The position numbers and the translations under genes are program-made. This document shows, one piece after another, positions 10,889 to 58,273 of a DNA stretch of 64,000 nucleotides (positions are counted from its first letter, which is position 1; every line of letters starts with the position of its first letter). The stretch is taken from NCBI RefSeq assembly GCF_044647545.1, contig NZ_CP172818.1. One strand, given 5' to 3'. The notes under the pieces were generated by a model that saw only the letters and a list, made by a program, of their open reading frames with translations, searched no databases and had not been told where the DNA came from. This DNA is from Escherichia coli (GTDB lineage Bacteria; Pseudomonadota; Gammaproteobacteria; Enterobacterales; Enterobacteriaceae).

Positions 10889-11072
10889 ATTTCTCTGAGA
10901 TGTTCGCAAGCGGGCCAGTCCCCTGAGCCGATATTTCATACCACAAGAATGTGGCGCTCCGCGGTTGGTGAGCATGCTCGGTCCGTCCGAGAAGCCTTAA
11001 AACTGCGACGACACATTCACCTTGAACCAAGGGTTCAAGGGTTACAGCCTGCGGCGGCATCTCGGAGATTCC
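10889..11072 (+). ncRNA. ssrS: 6S RNA (RNA polymerase sigma70-holoenzyme regulator)
   Basis: Sequence atttctctgagatgttcgcaagcgggccagtcccctgagccgatatttcatacc...ggagattccc recognised as E. coli 6S RNA; -10-like tagagtaacc just upstream. Confidence 0.9.
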
Positions 11073-11695: not shown

Positions 11696-11754
11696 GGGCG
11701 ACACACCTGCATCGCCCTGATTGACATCGTTGATTCTTTAACCTAATTTAGTGA

Positions 11755-11897
11755 GTAAGGGTAAGGGAGGATGACTCCTCCCCTGAGACTGACTGTTAAT
11801 AAGCTGGGAAACTTATGAGTAACAGTACAATCAGTATGATGACAAGTCGCATCATAACCCTTCTCCTTCAAGCCCTCGCTTCGGTGAGGGCTTTACC
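11755..11897 (+). ncRNA. sibC: SibC antitoxin sRNA antisense to ibsC (boundaries approximate)
   Basis: Antisense to ibsC; ends at intrinsic terminator hairpin gccctcgc-ttcg-gtgagggc followed by ttt (11872-11894). Confidence 0.55.
11796..11855 (-). CDS. ibsC: Type I toxin IbsC (19-aa hydrophobic peptide)
   Basis: Minus-strand translation gives MMRLVIILIVLLLISFPAY*; too short for the ORF track. Confidence 0.8.
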   Translation of the reverse strand: MMRLVIILIVLLLISFPAY

Positions 11898-14287: not shown

Positions 14288-14518
14288 TCAGACCCCGTTG
14301 GCAAGCCGCGTGGTTAACTCATCCATAAAATATCGCGCAATGGCGGGCATCCCCTTTCGCCCGGCAAATAAAGCATACAACGGTCTGGGTATGCCGCTCC
14401 ACGGTGCAAACAGGCGCACCAGTTCACCGTTCGCAAGCCCCTGTTTACAGGCAAATTGAGGCAATAACGCCACGCCATTCAACCCAACCGGGACGCGAAC
14501 TCGCCGAGCAAAATGCAT
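14288..14518 (-). pseudogene. yqfE: C-terminal fragment of a LysR-family regulator
   Basis: 76-aa ORF resembling only the C-terminal tail of a LysR-type effector domain; no N-terminal HTH portion upstream. Confidence 0.6.
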
Positions 14519-14584
14519 TAGCGCAAATCCCTGATCTTATTACACAAGTATTTAATCATTATCTTTAATATAAAAGGAGTTATT

Positions 14585-14845
14585 ATGTCTATTAAGCAAA
14601 ATTTATTTGCCGCATTATTTCTTTGCACTCTCACAGGACACGCATTTGCCGCAACCGAGATACACAAACCGGACAATAATCTTGAACAGTTATCAAAAGT
14701 GAGCATGTCCACACACAATAGCAATCCAGCGGGCGTTGAAAGCCAAATCAAAAGAGAAAGCGGAAGAGTTACAAGCCAGCAATTACTACATCAGTTCTTT
14801 CTCCGTAAAAATTATATCCACGCCACTGTAATTTTCTATAAATAG
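14585..14845 (+). CDS. Hypothetical small exported protein (86 aa)
   Basis: Strong SD (aaggag) 7 nt upstream of ATG; N-terminal signal-peptide-like segment MSIKQNLFAALFLCTLTGHAFAA. Confidence 0.45.
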   Translation: MSIKQNLFAALFLCTLTGHAFAATEIHKPDNNLEQLSKVSMSTHNSNPAGVESQIKRESGRVTSQQLLHQFFLRKNYIHATVIFYK

Positions 14846-15528
14846 CCCCTCTGTTTAACGGAAGCATGGAATTATTCCATGCTCCTCTGCCAAAATGAAA
14901 TAAAAAATGAAAAAAGCTAATCTTACAGGTACGTTGGTTTGCTTTGTCGCATGCCTTATTTTTTTGTCGTCCGGTGATATTTTTCGTGAAAAGCCAATCG
15001 CTCTAATATGGTTCCTTCGACAAAACATACTCTTTTTTACGGGAACTCTTGCGTGGTGTCTGATGACGCTGACGATGTGTTTATCGTTGCGTTCATCATG
15101 GCTTAACAAAGTGCTGGGCGGTCTGGATAAAGTATGGCGAATCACATAAGTGGGCAGGAATATGCGCCATAGCGTTTGCTTTCGCCCACTGGCTGGATGA
15201 AAAATTACCCCAGTTATTCGTCGCCTTTGGCTGGCTTACTCACCCTGGTAAAATCGTTGATATTAACCTGACGCCAGTACAAGAAAATTGGCTTCATGCG
15301 GGACTGTTAGCGGGTGAATGCGCAATGTTTATTATTATAGCGATGGTTTGCGTATCTCTTAGCAAAAGAGTTCCCTATCATTTATTTCATCTTGTTCACC
15401 GTTTGTTCCCCGTCTTTTATCTGGCAATTGCCTTTCATGTGTTTACTGCTTTGTTTAAATCATACTGGTGGAACTCCTGCTGCGTATTTATTAATTTTAA
15501 TTACTATTCCGGGCGTCTTTGCGGCTTT

Positions 15529-15537
15529 CATTTCGCT
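15529..15537. repeat. Left copy of 9-bp target-site duplication (catttcgct) flanking IS1
   Basis: Identical 9-mer directly abuts both IS1 ends. Confidence 0.85.
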
Positions 15538-16307
15538 GGTAATGACTCCAACTTACTGATAGTGTTTTATGTTCAGATAATGCCCGATGACTTTGTCATG
15601 CAGCTCCACCGATTTTGAGAACGACAGTGACTTCCGTCCCAGCCTTGCCAGATGTTGTCTCAGATTCAGGTTATGTCGCTCAATGCGCTGAGTGTAACGC
15701 TTGCTGATTACGTGCAGCTTTCCCTTCAGGCGGGATTCATACAGCGGCCAGCCATCCGTCATCCATACCACGACCTCAAAGGCCGACAGCAGGCTCAGAA
15801 GACGCTCCAGTGTGGCCAGAGTGCGTTCACCGAAGACGTGCCACAACCGTCCTCCGTATCCTGTCATACGCGTAAAACAGCCAGCGCTGACGTGATTTAG
15901 CACCGACGTAGCCCCACTGTTCGTCCATTTCAGCGCAGACAATCACATCACTGCCCGGCTGTATGCGCGAGGTTACCGACTGCGGCCTGAGTTTTTTAAT
16001 AAAGTGACGTAAAATCGTGTTGAGGCCAACGCCCATAATGCGGGCGGTCGCCCGGCATCCAACACCATTCATGGCCATATCAATGATTTTCTGGTGTGTA
16101 CCGGGTTGAGAAGCGGTGTAAGTGAACTGCAGTTGCCATGTTTTACGGCAGTGAGAGCAGAGATAGCGCTGATGTCCGGCAGTACTTTTACCGTTACGCA
16201 CCACGCCTTCAGTAGCTGAGCAGGAGGGACAACTGATGGAGATGGAAGCCACGGGAGCACCTCAAAAACACCATCATACACTAAATCAGTAAGTTGGCAC
16301 CATTACC
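15538..16307 (-). mobile_element. IS1-family insertion sequence (770 bp), divergent isoform
   Basis: Terminal inverted repeats ggtaatgactccaacttactgat / atcagtaagttggcaccattacc; InsA and InsB homologous ORFs on minus strand; flanked by 9-bp direct repeat. Confidence 0.92.
15553..16252 (-). pseudogene. insAB: IS1 insA-insB region; insA fused in-frame to insB' but insB then frameshifted (defective transposase)
   Basis: ORF 15827-16252 = [13 protein letters not shown]...[16 protein letters not shown]...[13 protein letters not shown]; 4-nt insertion at the A6C slippery site (cgtcactttattaaaaaactc) puts insA in the insB frame; a further indel (~2 nt) shifts frame so the rest of InsB is ORF 15553-15942. 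Confidence 0.8.
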
Positions 16308-16316
16308 CATTTCGCT
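16308..16316. repeat. Right copy of 9-bp target-site duplication (catttcgct) flanking IS1
   Basis: Identical to 15529-15537. Confidence 0.85.
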
Positions 16317-17082
16317 GCTGAAATTCAAACGGTAGTAAAAACAAGCATCAGGCTACCATTAAAAACATTGTTAACCATCCAGGACAAATTACCGAAGTCA
16401 CCCTGGAACTGGAACATGCCATCGACTATTCTCCGGGGCAGTTTGCATTCTTAACGTTCGCACACAGTAAAGAATCTCACCCTTTTACTATCGCTTCATA
16501 CACCAAAGAGAAGAACACGTTGCGCTTTGCCATCAAAAATTTAGGGGATTATACCTCTACCCTTGCATCCTCGATAAAAATCGGCCAGTCCGCCTTCGTT
16601 GAAGGGCCATGGGGAAAGTTTGATTTAGACTCTCCCTTGCTCCCACCAGGTCTGGATAGCAGGAGGCATCGGCATTACCCCCTTTATCGCCCAGCTTGAG
16701 TATCGTAAACATCATGGCGCGTCCTCTGTTCCTGTGGATCTCTGGTATTACGTCAGCCGAAGCGAGGATGCCTGGTATGTTGATAAACTGACCTCACTTT
16801 GTGCCCAGGCCAGGGTCACACTGCATCTGCTTGATGCGCATAAAGGTGAGCGCCTACAGGCGCACTATCTTACTGATAAAATAGCAAATAAAGGTGACAC
16901 CCATTTCTGGTTTTGCGGCCCACAGAGTTTTGCCAAAGCGCTCAGCAAAGGGTTATATGAAAATGGGATTGCCAGCCAAAACTTCCATTACGACCGTTTT
17001 TGTATGCGTTAAATGCTCTGTACCCAACGCAAAATTGTGTCATAGTGCAGGAAAAAGCATTTACCAGGAGCAGACAACAGCA

Positions 17083-17976: not shown

Positions 17977-18179
17977 TCCATCAAATAATGCCTGATAGCA
18001 CATATCAGGCGTTATCCTCACTTCTTTTTGTATTCCTTGAATCACATCACAAAATAGACAAATCTCAGGCGGCAAAAAACGACGTCTGAATGCATTTTTT
18101 TTGCTGGCGACAAACCCACGTAAAAAGCTCACCGTAAGCGCAAATACCCTCATTTTGATTGCGTTTTACGGAGCAAATA

Positions 18180-20323
18180 ATGTCTAACGTGCAGGAGTGG
18201 CAACAGCTTGCCAACAAGGAATTGAGCCGTCGGGAGAAAACTGTCGACTCGCTGGTTCAGCAAACCGCGGAAGGGATCGCCATCAAGCCGCTGTATACCG
18301 AAGCCGATCTCGATAATCTGGAGGTGACAGGTACCCTTCCTGGTTTGCCCCCTACGTTCGTGGCCCGCGTGCCACTATGTATACCGCCCAACCGTGGACC
18401 ATCCGTCAGTATGCTGGTTTTTCAACAGCAAAAGAGTCCAACGCTTTTTATCGCCGTAACCTGGCCGCCGGGCAAAAAGGTCTTTCCGTTGCGTTTGACC
18501 TTGCCACCCACCGAGGCTACGACTCCGATAACCCGCGCGTGGCGGGCGACGTCGGCAAAGCGGGCGTTGCTATCGACACCGTGGAAGATATGAAAGTCCT
18601 GTTCGACCAGATCCCGCTGGATAAAATGTCGGTTTCGATGACCATGAATGGCGCAGTACTACCAGTACTGGCGTTTTATATTGTCGCCGCAGAAGAGCAA
18701 GGTGTTACACCCGATAAACTGACCGGCACCATTCAAAACGATATCCTCAAAGAGTATCTTTGCCGCAACACCTATATTTACCCGCCAAAACCGTCAATGC
18801 GTATTATCGCAGACATCATCGCCTGGTGTTCCGGCAACATGCCGCGATTTAATACCATCAGTATCAGCGGTTACCATATGGGTGAAGCGGGTGCCAACTG
18901 CGTGCAGCAGGTAGCATTTACGCTCGCTGATGGGATTGAGTACATCAAAGCAGCAATCTCCGCCGGGCTGAAAATTGATGACTTCGCTCCTCGCCTGTCG
19001 TTCTTCTTCGGCATTGGCATGGATCTGTTTATGAACGTCGCCATGTTGCGTGCGGCACGTTATTTATGGAGCGAAGCGGTCAGTGGATTTGGCGCACAGG
19101 ATCCGAAATCACTGGCGCTGCGTACCCACTGCCAGACCTCAGGCTGGAGCCTGACTGAACAGGATCCGTATAACAACGTTATACGCACCACCATTGAAGC
19201 ACTGGCTGCAACGCTGGGCGGTACTCAGTCACTGCATACCAACGCCTTTGATGAAGCGCTTGGTTTGCCTACCGATTTCTCAGCACGCATTGCCCGCAAT
19301 ACCCAGATCATCATTCAGGAAGAATCAGAACTCTGCCGCACCGTCGATCCACTGGCCGGATCCTATTACGTTGAATCGCTGACCGATCAAATCGTCAAAC
19401 AAGCCAGAGCCATTATCCAACAGATCGACGAAGCCGGTGGCATGGCGAAAGCGATCGAAGCAGGTCTGCCAAAACGAATGATCGAAGAGGCCTCAGCGCG
19501 CGAACAGTCGTTGATCGACCAGGGCAAGCGTGTCATCGTTGGTGTCAACAAGTACAAACTGGATCACGAAGACGAAACCGATGTACTTGAGATCGACAAC
19601 GTGATGGTGCGTAACGAGCAAATTGCTTCGCTGGAACGCATTCGCGCCACCCGTGATGATGCCGCCGTAACCGCCGCGTTGAACGCCCTGACTCACGCCG
19701 CACAGCATAACGAAAACCTGCTGGCTGCCGCTGTTAATGCCGCTCGCGTTCGCGCAACGCTTGGTGAAATTTCCGATGCACTGGAAGCGGCATTTGACCG
19801 TTATCTGGTGCCAAGCCAGTGTGTTACCGGCGTGATTGCGCAAAGCTATCATCAGTCTGAGAAATCGGCCACCGAGTTCGATGCCATTGTTGCGCAAACG
19901 GAGCAGTTCCTTGCCGACAATGGTCGTCGCCCGCGCATTCTGATCGCCAAAATGGGCCAGGATGGGCACGATCGCGGCGCGAAAGTGATCGCCAGCGCCT
20001 ATTCCGATCTCGGTTTCGACGTAGATTTAAGCCCGATGTTCTCTACACCTGAAGAGATCGCCCGCCTGGCAGTAGAAAACGACGTTCACGTAGTGGGCGC
20101 ATCTTCACTGGCTGCCGGTCATAAAACGCTGATCCCGGAACTGGTCGAAGCGCTGAAAAAATGGGGACGCGAAGATATCTGCGTGGTCGCGGGTGGCGTC
20201 ATTCCGCCGCAGGATTACGCCTTCCTGCAGGAGCGCGGCGTGGCGGCGATTTATGGTCCAGGTACGCCTATGCTCGACAGCGTGCGCGACGTACTGAATC
20301 TGATAAGCCAGCATCATGATTAA
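18180..20323 (+). pseudogene. scpA: Methylmalonyl-CoA mutase (sleeping beauty mutase) with a -1 frameshift after codon ~57
   Basis: N-terminus MSNVQEWQQLANKELSRREK...TGTLPGLPP in frame 0 (ORF 18159-18593), then conserved [30 protein letters not shown]... continues in frame 2 (ORF to 20323); shift occurs in the C5 run at 18348-18352. Confidence 0.8.
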
Positions 20324-36779: not shown

Positions 36780-37321
36780 TGAATTCTCACCTGTCGGCTA
36801 TTTTCTCCTTACCTCATGTGACATATTCCCCATTTTACTCAAAAAAAATTTATATAAAAGCACCTTTTTCATAAACCTTATTTCCCCCAAAAAAATCTTT
36901 TTTTATCCCTTTGGGCGTTTTTCCTGTTTTTTCCCCCTTTTTTTCTTTTTTACCCCTTAAAAAAAGGAACGCGGCATTTTTTTGCCCTACGAAAAAATCG
37001 TAAAATTTGCCGAGCCGGGTCTGGGTTTTAAGATCCCGTTTTTGAAAAGGGGAAAAAAATTTCCACCCGTAATAAGGCGGGGGTTTATCAGGGATTAAAG
37101 CCTTCAACCCCCCACCAGAAACCGGCAAAAAAAAAAATTGAGTGAGCTTCCACATAAAAAATTCAGAAAAAGGCGCGGTTTATACCACCTACAACACCAT
37201 TGAAGCATTAAAAGATCGTCTGATTGTCCGTCAGTTGCCAACTCAACTGGAGAATTCCCATATACATACAACTACAAAACAACAAACATAAACAAAACCC
37301 ACAAAAAAAAATATCTCTAAA
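36780..37321. other. Compositionally aberrant homopolymer-rich non-coding segment (origin unresolved; possible assembly/synthetic artefact)
   Basis: Dense runs of A7-11, T5-9, C5-6, G5; no credible ORF, RBS or RNA fold; cmtB-tktA spacer is ~885 bp here versus a few hundred bp as I recall for K-12. Confidence 0.5.
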
Positions 37322-41425: not shown

Positions 41426-41528
41426 AAGGGTTGGATTTGCGAAACACAAGTATGCGCTAATTATCGCCTTAAATGAAAAGAGGGCCGCATCAAGGACTAA
41501 CACAGGTCCCATACCACCAAACTCCAAC

Positions 41529-43542
<2,014 letters not shown>

Positions 43543-56075: not shown

Positions 56076-57265
56076 TCATTAATGCCGCATGCGGCGTTAA
56101 TCACTTCTATAATAAATATAATTATATATTAAACATATATTAAAATAACACAACAATAATATTCTTCAATCAAAAATAAACAAAAACACACGATGAACCG
56201 AACAACATGCAAAAACAAATCACATCTCAAAAATTTATAACACTCTTCCCCTCCAACAACGAAAACAAAGAAAAATACGTTAAAAAACAAAAAATATCGA
56301 AACAGAAAAACGAAAAAAAAATAAAGTAATGAATCACCACACGAGAACAAGAAAAAAACAACAAAATATATACTAATAACACAGTAGGAAAGGAATAAGA
56401 ATCAACAAAGAAATTTTTACCATCATCAAACGATAACAAACAACCGAAGAGGGAGATAGTTGCCACACCGACACAGAACATCTCTCCACATCACAACAAT
56501 AACAGGTAGCGGAGCACCCCCAATAACCAAAACACAGACCCATACTTGACAACCAGAACAAAAAAACACAACGACAAAAACCAAACAACGAAGAATGAAA
56601 AATGATAAAGAAGAAATTGAATAATTAACACTATCACCCCTACATCAAACTAGAAAAGAAATCGTTGTTAGATATGCGCGGTGTGGTGGTCCTGTGATGC
56701 GCGAACTAGGCGTGACGCCTTTTCTGTCGCCGTCATGCTTGCTCTGGTTGTATGCGTAGTCTGATAAGACGCTCCAAACCACAAAAGCACAGCATCCCAT
56801 TCAGACCAAAGAAGGTTATGATTGCCGGCATTTTCTACCGCTGTCAACGTCTCATCTTGTTATAACTGGATTACTGATACCGCCCTCAAACGTGTTAATT
56901 GTTTTTCCCTACACTGCGCGTTTCTAGCACGCTATTAGCGGGATATGCAAGGGACTAAGAGTCGCGGTAAAAACCGGCATATCAAACGCGGCTACCCGCT
57001 TCAGAAAAAGCAACCTCCAGGCCTAAAGCGTTCGACCTACCAAGTTCTCGTCAAGGCGGCATCGGCGGCATTTTACGCAACGAAGGCCGATCTTCACAAT
57101 TATGATTACCGGGAATAAAATCGCGATTTACCCAAACGATCGAACGGTTACAAATAATTCGCACCGCAAACCAACAATCCAAAAACTAGGATTCAAACCC
57201 ACCAAATAAAAAAAAAAAAAAAAAGGAAAAACAAAAAAAAAAACAACAAAAAAAAAAAAAAGAAA
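56076..57265. other. ~1.2 kb non-coding segment of aberrant composition: A/C-rich block (~56100-56640), ORF-free block with REP-like fragment (~56640-57180), A-rich tail (57181-57265)
   Basis: Strong strand-asymmetric A+C bias with very little G/T in the first block; runs A17, A11, A14 abutting yggM stop; only low-complexity ORFs in the track; hemW-yggM spacer is <100 bp in K-12 as I recall. Confidence 0.5.
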
Positions 57266-58273
57266 TTACTTAATCACACCATTGCGCCGCAATTGTTCGG
57301 TATCTTTTTTCCAGCGTTCATTAGCCTGGTTGATATCGTCAATTTTCATCAAAATCGTGACTTTTTTACTGTTTATTTCTGAAACTTTCATCGTTAACGG
57401 ATATTGCCCTTTTTCGAGCGTTATCCAGTCATCCTGCAATTTACGGCTAAGTTTTTGTGATTGCAGGAAAGTCTGTCGCCGTTGTTCGTTGATATCGAAA
57501 TCTCGCTTCTGCTGAATCGGCACTTCATAACACTCTTCACTCTGTTTATGACATGCCGCAATCGCCGGTTGATAAACCTCTTTGTCATATTTAACCGCGA
57601 ACGCCTCGCTATCGTTCTGTTTATTAAACTCATCACGCTGTTGGTGAATTTTTTTAAAGGCGTCTTCGCGGGTCATTTGCTTACCATTTGCATCTTTTCC
57701 CCAATATGCATCCGCTGCTTTCTGCGCCGCCACCATTTGCTTATCAAGCGCTTTCACTTCCTTTTCCAGCGCAGGAATCGAGTTCTTCTGGGTATTCAAC
57801 GCAGTCTCAAGCTGACTAAAGCGATAATTGAAATCTTCGCTATTCACGATCAGATATTTATTATTCGTTTTGATATCGTCGACCACCCGCCCACGATCGC
57901 TGGCTGCCGCCTGAAAAGAGTAAAAGTTCACCGACCAGCCAGACGCGGGCGTTCCTTTACTGGTTAACATCGCCGAGAATTTTACCGGTTTATCTTTCGT
58001 CCAGGTCTGTTCGAGCAGTTCGTAATCTGCCAACTGACCGACCCAGGTATAGAGATCGTCACTGGAAGATACATCGCCTTCCGCTGACCAGGTGGCCTGA
58101 TTACCCTTAGCATCAAGATTTTTTAAGCTGATGGCATCAAGCTTGAGAATGCCGTGATACTGCTTTTTGAATTGATCTTTTAAGATATTTTCAGTTGGCG
58201 ATTCGCCATCTGCCCAGACATTACCAGTCATCAACATAAGCAGCGCCGTGCCAACAATCCATTGCTTTTTCAC
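57266..58273 (-). CDS. yggM: Periplasmic protein YggM
   Basis: 335-aa product with signal peptide MKKQWIVGTALLMLMTGNVWA. Confidence 0.85.
   Translation of the reverse strand: MKKQWIVGTALLMLMTGNVWADGESPTENILKDQFKKQYHGILKLDAISLKNLDAKGNQATWSAEGDVSSSDDLYTWVGQLADYELLEQTWTKDKPVKFSAMLTSKGTPASGWSVNFYSFQAAASDRGRVVDDIKTNNKYLIVNSEDFNYRFSQLETALNTQKNSIPALEKEVKALDKQMVAAQKAADAYWGKDANGKQMTREDAFKKIHQQRDEFNKQNDSEAFAVKYDKEVYQPAIAACHKQSEECYEVPIQQKRDFDINEQRRQTFLQSQKLSRKLQDDWITLEKGQYPLTMKVSEINSKKVTILMKIDDINQANERWKKDTEQLRRNGVIK

Follow-up and report, generated by a model that had tools for sequence, protein, structure and literature searches.

The open reading frame described here lies at 14585–14845 on the plus strand, in the serA–rpiA ... 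argP–scpA region of an Escherichia coli chromosome and within what we call the window, namely the whole 64,000-nucleotide stretch of DNA that was analyzed. Sequence comparison indicates that it is almost certainly, by descent, an orthologue of the DUF1471 (YdgH/BhsA/McbA) family, with a middle part that is read out of frame. It is preceded by the remnants of a LysR-family regulator gene and an FMN-dependent NADH-azoreductase gene, which are joined at a deletion junction, and is followed by an interrupted gene for a NOX-like ferric-reductase flavocytochrome. The features of the locus are as follows:

14288–14480, minus strand: C-terminal remnant of a LysR-family regulator (PF03466, E 6.9e-7), matching without differences the 3' end of the LysR gene (298 aa) in E. 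coli FDAARGOS_497
14480–14481, no strand: junction (CCATTC|AACCC) of a 1,346-bp deletion, corresponding to FDAARGOS_497 15636 to 16983 and identical in K-12-type genomes
14481–14568, plus strand: remnant of the FMN-dependent NADH-azoreductase gene, its last ~29 codons and stop, aligning to L001 4990–5088
14574–14579, plus strand: Shine–Dalgarno sequence AAGGAG, with a 5-nt spacer to the ATG, the same in intact alleles
14585–14845, plus strand: DUF1471 family ORF of 86 codons with ATG start and TAG stop, orthologue of WP_000023744.1 with its middle out of frame
14585–14653, plus strand: predicted Sec signal peptide, residues 1–23, with AFA|A cleavage (heuristic call; AF2 helix 3–16)
14750–14753, plus strand: run of four A where all other genomes have three (+1 frameshift), absent from all 235 gene-carrying complete E. 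coli genomes
14753–14806, plus strand: codons 57–74 out of frame, RESGRVTSQQLLHQFFLR in place of EKAEELQASNYYISSFSG
14805, plus strand: one G in place of the GG of all other genomes (−1 frameshift), restoring the frame
14860–14885, plus strand: stem-loop in the 61-nt spacer between the ORF and the reductase gene (−16.1 kcal/mol, z −3.5), with no U-tract
14907–15538, plus strand: 5' portion of the gene for the NOX-like ferric-reductase flavocytochrome, with indels +A at 15140 and −GA at 15471
15539–16307, minus strand: IS1 in the reductase gene, with InsA/InsB ORFs and a target duplication of ~9–10 bp (the flanks overlap at L002 6050–6059)
16308–17012, plus strand: remaining 3' portion of the reductase gene, encoding its FAD/NAD domain and carrying two more indels, at 16326 (+C) and 16627

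A preliminary description of this DNA had proposed an ATG at 14585 with an ideally spaced aaggag and a signal-peptide-like start, situated between a LysR fragment and a decayed flavocytochrome gene. All of this agrees with the layout above: the LysR fragment was called as a 76-aa ORF at 14288–14518 on the minus strand, which extends from the LysR remnant into azoreductase-derived DNA, and the flavocytochrome gene starts at 14907. The signal peptide was called by a rule of thumb based on the n, h and c regions and the cleavage motif. The N-terminus displays a basic n-region (MSIKQN), a hydrophobic core of 11 residues (LFAALFLCTLT, mean Kyte–Doolittle value 2.32) and a c-region with an A-x-A motif (GHAFA|A), and an AlphaFold2 (AF2) model of the intact allele has an N-terminal helix at residues 3–16 followed by a disordered, low-confidence linker. 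This N-terminus is thus a putative Sec signal peptide, a reading supported by homology to a family with cleaved signal sequences, for which cleavage has been established experimentally in SrfN and YahO (PMC4092069). The predicted mature protein comprises 63 residues, with no cysteine and no cofactor motif. A lipoprotein was considered and rejected: L-F-L-C, the stretch up to Cys14, is not a lipobox, and AFA|A suits signal peptidase I.

The 1,346-bp deletion takes roughly 222 codons from the LysR gene and some 180 from the 209-codon azoreductase gene, together with the 100 bp of divergent promoter region between them, so that of the upstream genes the window keeps 64 codons for the regulator and 29 for the azoreductase. 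The ORF starts 16 nt past the azoreductase stop and hence has probably lost its promoter with the deletion; no sigma-70-like promoter was found on the plus strand upstream of it. No terminator-like site was called at the stem-loop downstream. A diverged, 97%-identical allele (L002) keeps this structure with two substitutions in the stem, and it may be an mRNA-stabilizing or attenuating element. Further on, an 80-aa ORF from 14907 corresponds to the beginning of the ferric-reductase transmembrane domain (a PF01794 fragment); altogether, IS1 interrupts the reductase gene, which also has four small indels. In FDAARGOS_497, the IS1 copy (L003 17576–18343) has the same right junction, with 463 bp absent on its left (an IS1-adjacent deletion). 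The shared right junction and unequal left side mark the two as sister lineages, neither derived from the other. A search against Rfam returned nothing at the ORF and, in the window, only 6S RNA (ssrS, 10889–11072) and the SibC antitoxin RNA opposite ibsC (11721–11871), both intact and ordinary.

The DUF1471 gene and its intact cluster

The ORF had been described as unannotated and unrecognized. This does not hold: the window copy is, except for two indels, the gene for RefSeq WP_000023744.1, an 86-aa protein annotated as "DUF1471 domain-containing protein" or "YdgH/BhsA/McbA family protein", and the exact window variant is itself recorded as WP_400164852.1. Public annotation thus already includes the ORF under a name, and it is nothing new in kind. 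The intact allele matches Pfam PF07338 with an E of 1.8e-9 and 37.9 bits (cut-off 27), whereas the window ORF as written reaches no Pfam family at E ≤ 1 and falls below the PF07338 gathering score. The nearest named NCBIfam families to the intact allele are BhsA, YhcN, YbiJ, RclB and McbA; its scores miss each of their equivalog cut-offs (BhsA, 53.1 vs. 90; YhcN, 38.6 vs. 125; YbiJ, 30 vs. 110; RclB, 27.7 vs. 100; McbA, 27.8 vs. 110). Since no named equivalog cut-off is reached, we treat the protein as a separate paralogue, to which the name BhsA (NF047859) should not be applied although one source uses it.

The published DUF1471 fold has a long helix lying across a sheet (PMC4092069). The AF2 model of the intact allele likewise packs a long helix (49–62) against an antiparallel sheet (strands 35–44, 66–73 and 77–85), with a pLDDT of 83–91 over the domain. 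Foldseek places at the top 4EVU_B (probability 1.00, TM 0.63, rmsd 2.4 Å) and 2M2J, the two DUF1471 domains of Salmonella YdgH that have been solved. A PDB search with the single sequence gave nothing relevant, and one with a four-sequence profile gave weak matches to the DUF1471 entries 2JNA, 2NOC and 2MA4; the fold assignment is accordingly based on Pfam together with AF2 and Foldseek. The family is confined to the Enterobacterales (PMC4092069; PMC12096828), and the present protein, a small single-domain one of 63 mature residues, has the corresponding distribution across four genera.

Among 5,426 complete E. coli genomes, 231 carry the DNA by a 601-nt query, and 235 by the 3' part of the ORF (~4%), with a CDS annotated in 39 of 40 sampled genomes. 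The gene is missing from K-12-type genomes, where it has been deleted, in agreement with the earlier remark that it is not a K-12 protein. Within Escherichia, synonymous differences exceed non-synonymous ones by 11 to 1 (E. coli A16), 15 to 1 (E. whittamii) and 17 to 8 (Escherichia sp. E1V33); dN/dS ranges from 0.01 to 0.09, and all six orthologues compared have 86 codons. These figures indicate that the gene is under strong purifying selection within the genus. Beyond it, the searches returned orthologues from three genera only: Pseudocitrobacter (86 aa, 44% identical), Ewingella americana (86 aa, 41%) and Salmonella enterica (87 aa, 37%). A word-indexed search gave 13 homologues and an exhaustive phmmer search gave 8, such low numbers being explained by a small subfamily and a domain too short to reach library-wide significance against its paralogues; a scan of 100,044 species genomes returned only three loci.

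These data bear directly on whether the ORF is a gene at all. Length by itself says little, as the surrounding 8 kb contains 61 ORFs with 40 aa or more and many of equal size arise by chance; moreover, an overlapping 77-aa ORF on the minus strand (14518–14751) would allow it to be an antisense shadow. That it is such a chance ORF or shadow has, nevertheless, a negligible probability: the dN/dS values and the Pfam match of the intact allele already refute it, and there are orthologues of 86–87 aa and 37–44% identity in three other genera with conserved synteny. Hence, the case for a gene is made by homology and protein-level conservation. The preliminary description had named a lack of conservation as protein as one finding that would count against the ORF, and the dN/dS values are the opposite of it.

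In the intact Escherichia cluster, found between rpiA and argP, a LysR gene on the minus strand (298 aa) is followed by the FMN-dependent NADH-azoreductase (209 codons; PF02525, E 9e-41), the DUF1471 gene, a 441-aa "ferredoxin reductase family protein" and argP, with a divergent promoter region of 100 bp. Given the 16-nt gap to the azoreductase gene, the DUF1471 gene is presumably co-transcribed with it from the divergent LysR/azoreductase promoter region. The 441-aa orthologue combines PF01794, PF08022 and PF00175 (ferric-reductase transmembrane, FAD and NAD domains) in one chain, the architecture of bacterial NOX/ferric reductases, and its best solved relative is Streptococcus pneumoniae NOX (8QT6/8QQ7, E 4e-26), with NOX5 at E 9e-9. 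The same four genes occur in Salmonella at a different chromosomal site (L019), and Ewingella has LysR, DUF1471 and reductase genes at yet another (L009), whereas in Pseudocitrobacter the LysR and DUF1471 genes are followed by a truncated reductase at the rpiA–argP site (L005). The cluster is intact in L002, L009 and L019, and the genes occur at three chromosomal sites across four genera. E. coli SMS-3-5 and the strain of NZ_CM187528.1 also have an intact cluster.

The suggestion in the preliminary description of a link between the ORF product and the neighboring flavocytochrome finds support in this conserved gene order, the support being that of gene order within one subclade: no DUF1471 neighbor was found beside distant NOX-like homologues of ~40% identity (in Pantoea, Entomohabitans and an E. 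coli paralogue), which confines the linkage to that subclade. A role of the mature protein as an electron acceptor is not supported, as it has neither cysteine nor cofactor motif.

Several lineages show independent decay of the cluster. In Pseudocitrobacter (L005 5286–6277), the reductase lacks its transmembrane domain beside an intact DUF1471 gene; in E. coli A16 (L018 3208–4532), the reductase gene is split; and further E. coli strains carry an IS1 within the DUF1471 gene itself (P0021, P0022).

The recoded stretch and the origin of the damage

Over 594 nt (14481–15074), the window differs from FDAARGOS_497 at two positions only, the +A that turns A3 into A4 and the −G that turns GG into G. 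Either indel alone would truncate the product, at 74 or 81 residues, and the two together retain its length and last 12 residues, including the C-terminal KNYIHATVIFYK. The preliminary description, otherwise sound on the ORF, its ribosome-binding site, signal peptide and possible module, missed that residues 57–74 are thereby read out of frame. The recoded residues comprise the end of helix 49–62 and the whole of strand 66–73 in the model, and replace seven subfamily-invariant residues (K58, A59, L62, Y67, I69, S73 and G74). Correspondingly, the NCBIfam BhsA score falls from 53 bits for the intact allele to 22 bits for the window variant. With the same family alignment, the mean AF2 pLDDT is 74.9 for the intact allele and 60.8 for the window variant, in which every residue stays below 90; this is a weak test in that the alignment drives the model. 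The best identity among the 235 gene-carrying complete genomes is 98.6%, the shortfall being the two gaps, and the exact variant, WP_400164852.1 ("hypothetical protein"), is a singleton among 15 billion proteins that occurs on one contig.

Taken as written, the window copy is very probably non-functional, and its product would at best be an exported but misfolded peptide. The contrary proposal, that the ORF as it stands encodes a functional small exported protein and periplasmic partner of the adjacent module, can point to an open frame, a strong ribosome-binding site, the signal peptide, the kept KNYIHATVIFYK terminus and a second indel that restores the frame. We nonetheless judge it highly improbable: the 18 recoded residues remove invariant positions from the core helix end and strand, the ORF matches no family and the variant is unique, neither the regulator nor the supposed partner has an intact gene left in the window, and there is no promoter-like site upstream.

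The whole window was compared with FDAARGOS_497 and a K-12-type genome. The DNA shared with K-12 is almost perfectly identical to FDAARGOS_497, and about 28 kb of it is 100% identical; blocks of 1.0, 13.5 and 14.5 kb are free of differences, except for a small cluster of differences at the junk-facing edge of the 14.5-kb block. In contrast, every non-K-12 segment of the window is damaged, with six small indels in the DUF1471/reductase segment, and indels outnumber substitutions against FDAARGOS_497 over the window as a whole.

Several of these segments have unusual features of their own. The 5' part of a prohibitin-family gene (36833–37170 and 37254–37312), which FDAARGOS_497 has and K-12 lacks, is ~80% identical to its counterpart. 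In its first piece (36833–37170), 61 of 63 substitutions copy the adjacent base, compared to 27 ± 3.7 expected at random, and give rise to long homopolymers; in the segment as a whole, ~490 bp are absent and A/C-rich low-complexity sequence gives way to perfect identity again. The damage to this segment looks technical rather than biological. At 56108–57266, an A-rich stretch of 1.16 kb (35–51% A, with 51% in the first 600 nt and A17, A11 and A14 runs at its end) replaces the 3.2-kb TRAP-transporter region of FDAARGOS_497, of which a trace is left that is 72–83% identical with many gaps; no close match to this stretch was found among complete E. coli genomes. Between speB and speA, about 90 nt ending in A35 (41475–41566) replace a hypothetical gene of ~730 bp in FDAARGOS_497. 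In scpA (methylmalonyl-CoA mutase, 18159–20323), a change from C6 to C5 at 18347 results in two overlapping ORFs, and this is the only small indel seen inside a K-12-shared gene of the window. Between bglA and gcvP, there are 3 nt (1008–1010) compared to a 101-nt REP-like spacer in FDAARGOS_497 and ygfF (~1 kb) in K-12, and bglA ends in TAG instead of TAA.

Going by the pattern of differences, we consider it fairly probable that the two indels in the ORF are assembly errors and not real mutations, and the upstream 1,346-bp deletion is probably another; the confidence that we place in the explanation as a whole is that of this, its weakest part. The cause would be a reference-guided or poorly polished assembly, and the organism's real gene would then probably be an ordinary intact allele. 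The deletion is informative in this regard, as its junction is exactly that of K-12, yet the bases on both sides are of the FDAARGOS_497 type, the first K-12-specific base lying 5 nt off. The junction and the DUF1471 gene occur together in none of the complete E. coli genomes. As the source of the junction, homologous recombination with an allele of the K-12 type was rejected in view of those 5 nt, and a recurrence of the deletion driven by microhomology was rejected because the junction has none. A consensus assembly on a K-12 backbone would explain the junction at 14480/14481, and the size of the source chromosome, 4.50 Mb (4,499,902 bp) compared to 5.23 Mb in a near-identical relative, is compatible with such a reconstruction.

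The alternative is that the indels and the deletion are real: the regulator and promoter would have been lost and the partner gene hit by IS1, after which compensating slippages would have left a genuine pseudogene that merely looks intact. The locus does decay repeatedly, most E. coli having deleted it (4,655 genomes hold only the LysR/azoreductase remnant), and elsewhere IS1 within the DUF1471 gene and a truncated or split reductase attest to its erosion. In the window itself, the IS1 has a proper target duplication and is common to FDAARGOS_497, the assembly is not error-prone in general, with tens of kilobases free of homopolymer error, and the indels 16326 +C and 15471 −GA are not of the homopolymer kind and so are less typical of basecalling error. 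Two 1-nt indels, once present, compensate each other with a chance of about 1 in 2. Against this, both indels in the ORF are homopolymer-length changes with not one accompanying substitution in 594 nt, beside a core of ~28 kb without differences, which leaves no time for neutral decay; the excess of indels over substitutions is window-wide; and the deletion junction is identical to that of K-12, without microhomology, in a different haplotype. The neighbor-copying and poly-A patterns in other non-K-12 segments also speak for a technical origin, and we know of no mutational process that yields them. We therefore regard real decay as unlikely, and prefer assembly error as the source of the two indels.

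Related systems and biological meaning

The closest relatives with names, BhsA/YcfR, YhcN, YbiJ and McbA, share with the intact protein a precursor of ~86 aa, a signal peptide (predicted in the latter), a single DUF1471 domain, the C-terminal H-A-T-x-x-x-Y-K motif and the predicted fold. Unlike them, it is a separate paralogue with a gene cluster of its own that is present in ~4% of complete E. coli genomes, and in the window copy the frame is scrambled. Members of the family are small proteins that a cleavable Sec signal peptide directs to the periplasm or envelope, and those that have been characterized (BhsA, YhcN, RclB and SrfN) function in responses to envelope stress. By analogy with them (PMC4092069, PMC12096828), the ORF might be labeled an envelope stress protein.

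The closest functional analogy for the product is RclB of the rclABC operon, which confers resistance to reactive chlorine and HOSCN and in which RclB is proposed by the authors to affect envelope permeability (PMC12096828). In both cases, the gene for a cysteine-free DUF1471 protein of periplasmic location (here a predicted one) lies between those for a cytoplasmic flavoenzyme and an inner-membrane protein, next to a divergently transcribed regulator gene (rclR in that operon), and the RclB NCBIfam model matches with an E of 2.3e-6. The other components are, however, non-homologous: RclA, the DUF417 protein RclC and RclR there, compared to an AzoR-type flavodoxin-fold azoreductase, a NOX-like FRD/FAD/NAD flavocytochrome and a LysR regulator here.

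The neighboring 441-aa protein, for its part, resembles the MsrPQ (YedYZ) and SpNOX systems in its ferric-reductase transmembrane domain and FAD/NAD fusion. MsrQ is an example of an FRD membrane protein able to feed electrons to a dedicated periplasmic partner (PMC12525009). The DUF1471 protein differs from such a partner in having no cofactor motif or mature cysteine, and its partnership with the flavocytochrome would follow from gene order only.

The K-12 counterpart of the locus, the pseudogene yqfE (in RefSeq, "LysR substrate-binding domain-containing protein"), occupies the same rpiA–argP site and likewise has a LysR C-terminal fragment and the LysR/azoreductase deletion junction. K-12 differs in a second deletion that has removed the DUF1471 and reductase genes, both of which the window retains. 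We found no literature on WP_000023744 or on yqfE/rpiA/argP.

The practical implication is that findings of a "decayed gene" or an "odd ORF" in the non-K-12 segments of the window should be distrusted until the reads are checked. The ORF itself matters little, being a catalogued family member with an oddity that is best explained by sequence quality.

The linkage of DUF1471 and NOX-like genes in four genera is, on the other hand, a cheap and testable lead. A speculative reading, to which we give rather low credence, is that the cluster of intact relatives, made up of LysR, in some cases AzoR, DUF1471 and NOX-like genes, is a dedicated envelope redox-stress module in which the DUF1471 protein acts directly with the NOX-like flavocytochrome. 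It could, for example, guard or gate the envelope against the oxidant produced by the flavocytochrome, or target the electrons that it passes on. To our knowledge, no stress phenotype has been reported for the LysR/azoreductase/DUF1471/NOX-like cluster. This reading concerns the intact cluster of other strains and not the corrupted copy in the window; if true, it would open a first way into the mechanism of a DUF1471 protein and assign a physiological role to a NOX homologue of enterobacteria.
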